A DNA stretch of 10,895 nt, from the NCBI RefSeq assembly GCF_003334315.1, contig NZ_QOWR01000087.1. One strand, given 5' to 3'. A program made the translations under genes and the position numbers. Shown here in pieces: positions 6,658 through 9,288 of the stretch. The notes below the pieces were generated by a model. That model did no database searches and had not been told where the DNA came from. It saw only the letters and a program-made list of their open reading frames with translations. The stretch comes from Escherichia coli (GTDB lineage: Bacteria; Pseudomonadota; Gammaproteobacteria; Enterobacterales; Enterobacteriaceae). Numbering within the stretch: the stretch's first letter is position 1; every line of letters begins with the position of its first letter.

Positions 6658-7689
6658 ATGTCTGCATTTACCCCGGCAAGTGAAGTCTTGCTGCGTCACA
6701 GTGATGATTTCGAACAAAGCCGTATTCTGTTTGCCGGAGACTTACAGGATGACCTGCCCGCGCGTTTAGATACCGCGGCCAGCCGTGCTCATACCCAGCA
6801 ATTCCACCACTGGCAGGTATTAAGCCGCCAGATGGGGGATAACGCCCGTTTCAGTCTGGTCGCCACGGTGGATGACGTCGCAGATTGCGATACGCTGATT
6901 TACTACTGGCCGAAGAACAAACCGGAAGCCCAGTTCCAGTTGATGAATTTACTTTCTCTGCTGCCAGTGGGGACAGATATTTTTGTCGTTGGCGAGAACC
7001 GCAGCGGCGTGCGCAGCGCCGAGCAGATGCTGGCAGATTATGCGCCGTTGAATAAAGTCGACAGCGCTCGTCGCTGTGGCCTCTATTTTGGTCGTCTGGA
7101 AAAACAGCCGGTATTTGATGCCGATAAATTCTGGGGCGAATACAGCGTCGATGGCCTGACGGTCAAAACGCTGCCTGGCGTGTTTAGCCGCGACGGTCTG
7201 GATGTCGGTAGCCAGTTGCTGCTCTCGACGTTAACCCCGCACACGAAAGGTAAAGTGCTGGATGTCGGCTGTGGCGCGGGTGTGCTTTCAGTTGCCTTTG
7301 CGCGCCATTCGCCGAAAATTCGTCTCACCTTGTGCGATGTCTCTGCGCCAGCGGTAGAAGCCAGCCGCGCAACACTTGCGGCCAACGGTGTTGAAGGTGA
7401 AGTCTTTGCCAGCAACGTCTTTTCCGAGGTGAAAGGTCGTTTTGATATGATCATCTCCAACCCGCCGTTCCACGATGGGATGCAAACCAGCCTGGATGCG
7501 GCGCAAACGCTGATTCGCGGCGCGGTGCGTCATCTTAATAGCGGCGGCGAGCTGCGAATTGTAGCGAACGCCTTCCTGCCTTACCCGGACGTGCTGGATG
7601 AGACATTTGGCTTCCATGAAGTGATTGCGCAAACCGGGCGTTTCAAGGTGTATCGCGCCATTATGACCCGCCAGGCGAAGAAAGGTTAA
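6658..7689 (+). CDS. rsmC: 16S rRNA (guanine1207-N2)-methyltransferase RsmC
   Basis: 343-aa [15 protein letters not shown] with SAM-binding motif [12 protein letters not shown] and the NPPFH motif characteristic of N-directed methyltransferases. GAGGAG RBS lies 7 nt upstream of the ATG. Confidence 0.95.
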
Positions 7690-7700
7690 TTATCTCGCCG

Positions 7701-7880
<180 letters not shown>

Positions 7881-7997: not shown

Positions 7998-8084
7998 GCG
8001 AAGGTGGCGGAATTGGTAGACGCGCTAGCTTCAGGTGTTAGTGTCCTTACGGACGTGGGGGTTCAAGTCCCCCCCCTCGCACCA
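7998..8084 (+). tRNA. tRNA-Leu (anticodon CAG), leuQ/leuP/leuV family; single copy in this window
   Basis: 87-nt sequence gcgaaggtggcggaattggtagacgcgctagcttcaggtgttagtgtccttacggacgtgggggttcaagtcccccccctcgcacca. It has class II tRNA features: long variable arm, CAG anticodon in the loop cuUCAGgu, T-loop GGTTCAAGTCC and an encoded 3' CCA. Confidence 0.95.
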
Positions 8085-8122: not shown

Positions 8123-8359
8123 TCATCCCTGATTCAAATTCATTAGCATCAGCATGATGCCAGCACTAAGCGCCAGGCACGATGGTAGCAAAATGTAATG
8201 CCGTAACTGTTTGTGATACAGCATCACCGGCGTCAATATCAATCCCATCAGAATGACAATCCGCCACTGATCCGGCGATAAATCCGCATACATCAGCCCT
8301 GCAATCAGCAATCCCGGCAGCAACACTCCCCAGCCACTGCCCAGCGTACGTTGCAACAT
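8123..8359 (-). CDS. yjjZ: Small uncharacterized membrane protein YjjZ (Fur-regulated by location)
   Basis: 78-aa hydrophobic product MLQRTLGSGWGVLLPGLLIAGLMYADLSPDQW. ATG at 8357-8359. The 115-aa track ORF would start at a TTG inside the fhuF promoter / Fur-box region, which is unlikely. Confidence 0.75.
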   Translation of the reverse strand: MLQRTLGSGWGVLLPGLLIAGLMYADLSPDQWRIVILMGLILTPVMLYHKQLRHYILLPSCLALSAGIMLMLMNLNQG

Positions 8360-8377
8360 GGTTTCATCTCTTTCATT

Positions 8378-8416
8378 GATAATGATAACCAATATCATAT
8401 GATAATTTTTATCATT
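8378..8416. promoter_or_regulatory. Fur boxes (overlapping) in the yjjZ/fhuF divergent control region
   Basis: gataatgataaccaatatc (8378-8396) and atatgataatttttatcatt closely match the Fur consensus GATAATGATAATCATTATC. They lie immediately upstream of yjjZ. Confidence 0.7.
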
Positions 8417-8465
8417 TGCAAGCCAGAGAAATCCCTTGCTATCGGGTAAACCTATCGCTAGGATT

Positions 8466-8486
8466 AGCAATCATTATCATTTAGAT
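8466..8486. promoter_or_regulatory. Fur box overlapping the fhuF promoter
   Basis: agcaatcattatcatttagat contains AATCATTATC, matching the 3' half of the Fur consensus, about 15-35 bp upstream of the fhuF ATG. fhuF is a classic Fur-repressed gene. Confidence 0.6.
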
Positions 8487-8499
8487 TACTATCCCGATT

Positions 8500-9288
8500 A
8501 TGGCCTATCGTTCCGCACCGCTCTATGAAGATATCATCTGGCGAACGCATCTCCAGCCGCAGGATGCTGGGCTTGCACAAGCCGTACGTGCGACGATCGC
8601 CAAACATCGTGAACATTTGCTCGAGTTTATCCGCCTGGATGAACCCGCTCCGCTTAACGCCATGACGCTGGCGCAATGGTCATCACCGAATGCGCTAAGT
8701 TCTCTACTCGCGGTCTATTCCGATCATATCTATCGCAACCAACCAACGATGATCCGCGAGAACAAACCGCTGATCTCACTATGGGCACAATGGTATATCG
8801 GCCTGATGGTGCCACCATTAATGCTGGCGCTACTGACGCAGGAAAAGGCATTAGATGTGTCGCCGGAACATTTCCATGCTGAGTTTCACGAAACCGGACG
8901 CGTCGCCTGTTTCTGGGTCGATGTGTGTGAAGATAAAAACGCAACACCACATTCGCCGCAGCAGCGAATGGAAACGTTAATCAGCCAGGCGCTGGTTCCG
9001 GTTGTGCAGGCACTAGAAGCGACCGGAGAGATCAACGGCAAACTTATCTGGAGTAATACCGGTTATTTGATCAACTGGTATCTCACTGAGATGAAGCAGC
9101 TGCTCGGCGAGGCGACGGTTGAATCGCTGCGCCATGCCCTCTTTTTTGAGAAAACGCTCACGAACGGTGAAGATAATCCACTCTGGCGTACCGTGGTACT
9201 GCGCGATGGCCTGCTGGTGCGCCGCACTTGCTGCCAGCGTTATCGCTTACCGGATGTGCAGCAATGTGGCGATTGTACGCTGAAATGA
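8500..9288 (+). CDS. fhuF: Ferric-siderophore reductase FhuF ([2Fe-2S] protein)
   Basis: 262-aa ORF MAYRSAPLYEDIIWRTHL ending in the Cys cluster C-C-x10-C-x2-C (RRTCCQRYRLPDVQQCGDCTLK) characteristic of FhuF. Confidence 0.93.
   Translation: MAYRSAPLYEDIIWRTHLQPQDAGLAQAVRATIAKHREHLLEFIRLDEPAPLNAMTLAQWSSPNALSSLLAVYSDHIYRNQPTMIRENKPLISLWAQWYIGLMVPPLMLALLTQEKALDVSPEHFHAEFHETGRVACFWVDVCEDKNATPHSPQQRMETLISQALVPVVQALEATGEINGKLIWSNTGYLINWYLTEMKQLLGEATVESLRHALFFEKTLTNGEDNPLWRTVVLRDGLLVRRTCCQRYRLPDVQQCGDCTLK

Follow-up and report, generated by a model that had tools for sequence, protein, structure and literature searches.

Probably two Fur operators, joined by gene loss, in the 140-bp region between yjjZ and fhuF of Escherichia coli

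The 140-bp region between the divergent genes yjjZ and fhuF of E. coli probably comprises two promoters, each under its own Fur array, whose ancestrally separate operators were joined by loss of an intervening gene. Our inference is that each array works independently of the other in E. coli. The Fur-box cluster is real, correctly located and already known in detail (literature, EcoCyc/RegulonDB), as are the footprints and the membership of yjjZ in the Fur regulon; new here is the interpretation only, namely two operators and their origin by gene loss, and neither appeared in any passage of the cited papers returned by a term search.

The DNA analyzed (referred to as the window, 10,895 nucleotides) is part of the E. 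coli chromosome, 97-99% identical to that of K-12 and identical to that of several environmental isolates. The gene names yjjZ (DUF1435) and fhuF were taken from the RefSeq annotation of identical E. coli genomes. The locus is organized as follows.

6658-7689, plus strand: rsmC
7690-7870: REP-rich spacer downstream of rsmC
7998-8084, plus strand: tRNA-Leu(CAG) gene, single copy
8123-8359, minus strand: yjjZ coding sequence, 78 amino acids, ATG at 8359-8357 and stop codon at 8123-8125 (translation, Pfam, RefSeq)
8360-8499: yjjZ/fhuF divergent intergenic region, 140 bp, with two back-to-back sigma-70 promoters and two clusters of Fur sites
8500-9288, plus strand: fhuF coding sequence, 262 amino acids, ferric-siderophore reductase (NCBIfam NF007932, RefSeq)
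Beyond fhuF, minus strand: bglJ and yjjQ

A reading of this DNA from its sequence alone had placed the divergent intergenic region at 8360-8499, and both start codons were located exactly at its borders, with translation and RefSeq in agreement. FhuF matched the NCBIfam equivalog NF007932 (siderophore-iron reductase) at 4.7e-144, above the cut-off. The 140-bp region was found at a coverage of at least 80% in 5425 of 5426 complete E. coli genomes, in nearly all of them with at least 95% identity; the version in the window is the majority form (at least 99% identity in 3436 of the 5425 genomes). It differs from K-12 at three of 140 bases (8361, 8428 and 8461), which leave the strong Fur sites unaffected. 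An Rfam scan of the 140 bp found no RNA family. On the far side of yjjZ, K-12 carries three tandem tRNA-Leu genes (leuQ, leuP, leuV) versus one at 7998-8084 in the window; thus, the tRNA-Leu(CAG) copy number at the rsmC-yjjZ locus differs among E. coli strains. The spacer after rsmC contains a REP/BIME-type unit of approximately 43 bp twice (~7703-7745 and ~7814-7856), and Rfam reported a match to naRNA4 (CssrE, a REP-derived nucleoid-associated RNA) on the minus strand at 7768-7850 with 70.3 bits.

Fur sites were scored with a weight matrix derived by Gibbs alignment of 16 footprinted or gel-shifted Fur regions of K-12 (fepA-fes, fepB, entC, fepD-entS, fur, tonB, cir, sodA, fecA, fecI, gpmA, ryhB, sufA, bfd, mntH and yoeA), from which fhuF was left out. 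Coordinates of the training regions were taken from the table of Chen 2007 (NAR 35:6762, PMC2189734) and converted to NC_000913.3, and the DNA was fetched from K-12. The de novo motif obtained by the Gibbs sampler from the 16 regions was AATGATAATAATTATCATT, and the training sites scored 7.6-28.8 bits in leave-one-out evaluation. Application of the matrix to the intergenic region gave five sites.

8375-8393, centre 8384: Fur site A, 16.8 bits, at +2 from the yjjZ transcription start (weight matrix)
8381-8399, centre 8390: Fur site B, 21.0 bits, overlapping the -10 hexamer and transcription start of yjjZ
8398-8416, centre 8407: Fur site C, 21.4 bits, filling the spacer of the yjjZ promoter, at -62/-63 from the fhuF start
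8463-8481, centre 8472: Fur site D, 13.7 bits (weight matrix)
8469-8487, centre 8478: Fur site E, 5.1 bits (weight matrix)

The sequence-only reading had counted at least three near-consensus Fur sites; the matrix bears this out with four to five, arranged in two separate clusters. The four sites with 13.7-21.4 bits fell within the score range of the experimentally verified sites, while the highest score elsewhere in the 10.9-kb window was 6.3 bits and the other intergenic regions reached at most 4.7 bits. The classical 19-bp consensus matched 8378-8396 with two mismatches (zero matches expected by chance in the window), followed by 8401-8419 with four and 8395-8413 with six mismatches. At three mismatches or fewer it marks a single location and is therefore poorly suited for counting sites, which is why the weight matrix was used instead. 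With the 7-1-7 model, the best four matches of the whole window all lay inside the 140 bp; the gap-less three-hexamer pattern GATAAT GATAAT ATTATC gave no useful signal.

Fur boxes resemble -10 and -35 hexamers and the intergenic region is 67% A+T, so that the matches might be a by-product of A+T-rich promoter DNA without Fur function. Among 5000 dinucleotide-preserving shuffles of the region, 189 contained at least one site of at least 13 bits and seven contained at least two; four or more, the number found in the actual sequence, occurred in none. Together with the low scores in the other intergenic regions, the DNase I footprints over these sites, their conservation across about 20 genera and the expression data from fur mutants, this refutes a chance origin, to which we assign a practically negligible probability.

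The positions agree with published Fur binding. Chen 2007 reported a gel shift and DNase I footprints of a high-affinity and a low-affinity cluster at this locus of K-12 (PMC2189734). K-12 coordinates from that paper were converted by the relation window position = 4612186 - K-12 coordinate, which was checked on both start codons.

8371-8423 (K-12 4603763-4603815): high-affinity DNase I footprint, "fhuF1" (Chen 2007 Table 3, PMC2189734)
8453-8506 (K-12 4603680-4603733): low-affinity DNase I footprint, "fhuF2" (Chen 2007 Table 3, PMC2189734)

All matrix sites of the intergenic region lie inside these two footprints. The scores obtained here (21.4, 21.0, 16.8, 13.7 and 5.1 bits) reproduce those given in Chen 2007 (22.3, 20.8 and 16.1 bits for the strong cluster, 14.6 and 9.3 bits for the weak one), an agreement that is not fully independent because the matrix sites were partly chosen by a similar published model. 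Site C is centred at 8407, exactly on the strongest site of Chen 2007 (K-12 4603779, 22.3 bits); A and B correspond to its 16.1- and 20.8-bit sites, D and E to its 14.6- and 9.3-bit sites. Thus, the K-12 sites and those of the window represent the same locus with the same scores and footprint positions (PMC2189734). Further Fur binding at the locus was reported by ChIP-exo/ChIP in several strains (PMC10164565, PMC7157518).

The sequence-only reading had proposed that both genes are co-repressed from shared operators. In such a model, a single Fur array would nucleate at the strong sites, spread and cover both promoters as at fepA-fes. All sites lie within 140 bp, the -35 hexamers of the two promoters are only 14 bp apart, and Fur protection was described to extend along the DNA at higher concentration ("secondary footprinting", PMC2189734), all of which would suit such an array. 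However, the published footprints are separate and of differing affinity, with an unprotected stretch of approximately 30 bp (about 8424-8452) between them (PMC2189734). In agreement, site C ends at 8416 and site D starts at 8463, so the sites do not form a single contiguous array over both promoters, and each cluster overlaps only one core promoter.

8394-8421, minus strand: yjjZ sigma-70 promoter, -35 TTGCAA at 8421-8416, 16-nt spacer, -10 TATGAT at 8399-8394
~8386, minus strand: yjjZ transcription start (MG1655 4,605,777; Schmidt et al. 2023, PMC10301672)
8436-8470, plus strand: fhuF sigma-70 promoter, -35 TTGCTA at 8436-8441, 17-nt spacer, -10 TAGGAT at 8459-8464
8469/8470, plus strand: fhuF transcription starts (Chen 2007 Fig. 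5, PMC2189734)

A promoter scan of the window recovered the yjjZ promoter at 8394-8421, in accordance with Schmidt et al. 2023, who described the TTGCAA...TATGAT sigma-70 promoter with two Fur sites in EcoCyc (PMC10301672). Relative to the yjjZ start, sites C, B and A are centred at about -21, -4 and +2 and together span about -30 to +11, so the high-affinity footprint overlies the yjjZ core promoter. The wild type showed no yjjZ transcription, whereas a fur mutant did, and transcription in vitro was strong (PMC10301672). Gao et al. 2023 assigned the gene to the Fur regulon core of nine E. coli strains, with upregulation on fur deletion (PMC10164565), and it also belongs to the direct Fur regulon of uropathogenic CFT073 and of MG1655 (PMC7157518). 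In Salmonella, a yjjZ-lacZ fusion required sigma-S only when Fur was present, which the authors ascribed to sigma-S counteracting Fur repression (PMC8970401), and a PyjjZ-gfp fusion was iron-repressed and 23-fold induced in the epithelial cytosol (PMC8432900). The sequence-only reading had regarded the inclusion of yjjZ in the iron-starvation response as the more interesting point; the inclusion itself is correct, but as the Fur regulon and fur mutant data are already published, it provides no new lead.

Historically, both clusters have been named after fhuF ("fhuF1" and "fhuF2"), which would fit a strong array that serves fhuF alone, with yjjZ as a bystander lacking Fur dependence. Derepression of yjjZ in fur mutants of E. 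coli, uropathogenic E. coli and Salmonella contradicts this, as does the position of the strong array directly on the yjjZ core promoter and its retention at yjjZ where fhuF is distant or absent (see below); we consider a bystander role of yjjZ highly improbable.

Public gene calls often extend YjjZ to 91, 98 or 133 amino acids by using in-frame upstream start codons, e.g. the ATG at 8398-8396. These codons lie upstream of the mapped transcription start at 8386 and within the Fur-bound promoter, so the longer versions are probably mis-annotations. A plus-strand match, TTGATA-16-TATGAT at 8376-8403, was considered as a second fhuF promoter or as a relic of the promoter of the lost gene. It shares with the yjjZ -10 element the palindrome ATCATATGAT (8394-8403), which reads TATGAT on both strands. 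The match is probably incidental because its -35 hexamer is not conserved and other genera carry a CCGATA-type sequence there.

At fhuF, the -35 and -10 hexamers were read from the sequence and are conserved in an alignment of 20 genera. Sites D and E are centred at about +2/+3 and +8/+9 from the fhuF start and span roughly -7 to +18; in the window, they run from the end of the -10 hexamer (8463) to 8487. The strong cluster A-C lies 62-86 bp upstream of the fhuF start, outside the fhuF core promoter. At both yjjZ and fhuF, Fur sites therefore overlap the core promoter or the transcription start, as expected for Fur-repressed promoters. The expression of fhuF was reported to be derepressed without Fur or under iron limitation (PMC2189734, PMC8068687). 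Thus, the proposal that iron and Fur repress both genes is backed by published footprints, derepression in fur mutants and regulon data. In vivo, fhuF is described as a weak-affinity Fur promoter, the property that underlies the FURTA assay. This behavior fits control by the weak array D/E and not by an array with 21-22-bit sites located 60-85 bp upstream, and it argues against a shared operator.

The difference from K-12 at 8461 concerns the fhuF -10 hexamer, which is TAGGAT in the window and nearly all other aligned genera, TAGTAT in a few (including E. albertii, E. whittamii, Klebsiella and Raoultella), and TATGAT, nearer to the consensus, in K-12. Judging from the hexamer, fhuF expression may be somewhat stronger in K-12. 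Repression of fhuF by OxyR was also reported (PMC8068687), and a consensus scan placed a weak candidate OxyR site over the spacer, -10 hexamer and start site of the fhuF promoter.

8441-8477: candidate OxyR site, 13 of 20 specified consensus positions

This match is tied second-best in the window. As one unrelated site reached 14 of 20 positions, it is regarded only as a candidate.

The yjjZ locus was then compared across species. A search with one genome per species, using an alignment of eight DUF1435 sequences (25 diverse ones were too divergent to serve as alignment), yielded 80 yjjZ loci, essentially all from Enterobacteriaceae; Salmonella was not among them. A divergent fhuF lies upstream of yjjZ in 78 of these loci; the other two end inside the intervening gene. 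The distance between the start codons falls into three classes: 140 bp only in Escherichia (five loci), 155-166 bp in Leclercia and Silvania (five loci), and about 1400-1560 bp in 68 of the 78 loci, from genera including Citrobacter, Klebsiella, Raoultella, Enterobacter, Kosakonia, Buttiauxella, Lelliottia, Phytobacter, Kluyvera, Franconibacter, Atlantibacter, Siccibacter and Dryocola. The insert in the 68 loci encodes a membrane GGDEF diguanylate cyclase of approximately 354 amino acids (~1.1 kb; TIGR00254, 2.5e-46). Its gene is divergent from yjjZ (median gap 255 bp) and co-directional with fhuF, which it immediately precedes; an example is found at L025:1680-2744, minus strand (loci L020-L094). 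By position, its counterpart in Salmonella may be STM4551. In some loci, a Fur-like site of 9-15 bits also lies close to the start codon of the diguanylate cyclase gene, approximately 240-300 bp from yjjZ.

All 78 scorable loci carry at least one Fur site of at least 13 bits. Where the diguanylate cyclase gene separates the two genes by ~1.4 kb, yjjZ retains the sites located ~25, ~31 and ~48 bp before its start codon, and fhuF the one ~30 bp before its own. A site of at least 13 bits was present within 70 bp of the yjjZ ATG in 67 of the 68 long-gap loci (median best score 21.0 bits) and within 70 bp of the fhuF ATG likewise in 67 of 68 (median 15.9 bits); the remaining sequence of these loci has a background density of 0.048 such sites per kb. 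The presence of strong yjjZ and weak fhuF sites in separated loci implies that the asymmetry of the E. coli footprints is ancestral. Of the Fur sites, B is the best conserved between genera, with a median of 21.0 bits and a score of ~21 bits at the majority of the 78 loci. Each of the five Escherichia loci has a 21.4-bit site C, compared with a median of 11.7 bits for the genera that retain the diguanylate cyclase gene. In a multiple alignment of 20 genera, each side retains one conserved block consisting of promoter and operator, and conservation ends at each -35 hexamer: GCTGACAAATGAGAAATTTTATCATATGATATTGGTTATCATTATC on the yjjZ side and CTTGC-(17)-TAGGATTGGCAATCATTATCATTTAGATT on the fhuF side. 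The block GCAATCATTATCATTTAGATT over sites D/E (8463-8487) is conserved in all genera aligned. An enterobacterial contig (L095:2718-3228) contains yjjZ divergent from anmK and a murQ-like SIS gene, without fhuF or the cyclase gene; in this contig, the promoter block of yjjZ is retained, and a Fur site of 23.5 bits occupies the usual position 48 bp before the ATG.

Pairwise and multiple alignments also located the point at which the two parts meet in the window.

~8423-8430: approximate junction at which the diguanylate cyclase gene would have been lost (pairwise and multiple alignments)

To its left, the sequence aligns with yjjZ-proximal DNA of other genera, to its right with fhuF-proximal DNA. 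From these alignments, it looks as if the Escherichia lineage lost the diguanylate cyclase gene, which left the promoters back to back with their -35 hexamers 14 bp apart. The loss in Leclercia and Silvania was apparently independent, because these two genera have a different junction and the gene is still present in the related Lelliottia and Enterobacter.

The proposed shared operators are accordingly not supported by the comparative data: genes and sites are not inherited as a unit, as the genes are separated in 68 of 78 loci and unlinked in L095, and in both situations the arrays are kept by their respective genes. The strength of site C specifically in Escherichia, where fhuF became the neighbor, would be in line with a shared array; the comparison of scores suggests that site C was possibly strengthened after this event, which could mean new cross-talk post-fusion. 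Considering the separate footprints, the weak Fur affinity of fhuF and the arrays that stay with their own genes, we judge a single shared operator unlikely.

In the two-operator reading that we prefer, active Fur would block each of the two back-to-back sigma-70 promoters through its own array under iron-replete conditions. The strong three-site operator of yjjZ (centres at 8384, 8390 and 8407) would keep this gene essentially silent at sufficient iron, and the weaker array of fhuF (8472 and 8478) would make fhuF a leaky, easily derepressed Fur target. Ancestrally, the diguanylate cyclase gene would have stood between yjjZ and fhuF, each with its own Fur site or sites, and its loss in Escherichia would have pushed two separate operators together. 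Since the footprints are only ~30 bp apart, loading of Fur onto the fhuF promoter could be assisted by the strong array, or upstream contacts of RNA polymerase could be disturbed by it.

YjjZ had been described from the sequence as a small membrane protein, and this holds: the 78-residue protein has three hydrophobic segments by hydropathy and is described in the literature as having three transmembrane segments (PMC5437024). It matches PF07256 (DUF1435) over the full profile (residues 1-75 of 75, 1e-35). The family is tiny, with 54 representatives at 50% identity among 1.84 billion proteins. It conserves SGWG near the N-terminus and an ML.H..LR...LLP motif; only M46, L52, R53, L57, L58 and P59 of YjjZ are conserved at 90% or more across the family. 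A metal or haem site was considered and dropped, since no His or Cys is invariant in DUF1435 and the sequence thus offers no evidence for such a ligand. None of the publications found in a literature search assigned a function to YjjZ. [quoted passage not shown] A role of YjjZ in the FhuF ferric-siderophore reductase system, e.g. as a membrane tether for FhuF, is conceivable, but we regard it as quite improbable. The linkage is breakable (L095) and, within a single bacterial family, may reflect plain inheritance. If the partnership were true, gene loss in Escherichia would have tightened an existing link into a compact iron-controlled divergent pair. A functional study of YjjZ appears worthwhile, considering its tight control by iron and its high induction in Salmonella in the host-cell cytosol; the need for such a study is already recognized.

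The arrangement resembles the bidirectional promoters of the enterobactin system (fepA-fes, fepB-entC and fepD-entS), all three of which are in the training set: divergent iron-regulated genes likewise share a short gap with Fur boxes, and repression likewise occurs by occlusion of sigma-70 promoters. At fepA-fes, a single operator array overlaps both promoters. In contrast, yjjZ/fhuF has two arrays of different affinity, one per promoter, which were ancestrally unlinked. Overlapping Fur sites of graded affinity, with wider protection at more Fur, are also known from the aerobactin gene iucA (PMC2189734); there, the sites are contiguous and belong to a single promoter, whereas the weak and strong sites at yjjZ/fhuF belong to two promoters on opposite strands.

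In the available parts of Chen 2007 (PMC2189734), both clusters are named after fhuF and yjjZ is marked only by its start codon; databases and FURTA controls likewise assign both boxes to fhuF ("FB-FhuF1+2"). We consider it somewhat more likely than not that the "high-affinity fhuF operator", for decades a standard Fur box, is really the operator of yjjZ, and that the weak one is fhuF's own. The high sensitivity of fhuF::lacZ as a Fur-titration reporter would then follow from the weakness of its own operator. The two-operator reading would also reconcile two seemingly contradictory descriptions, a Fur cluster ranking among the strongest in the genome and a weak Fur affinity of fhuF, and the locus would provide a clean natural example of two operators fused through the loss of an intervening gene.
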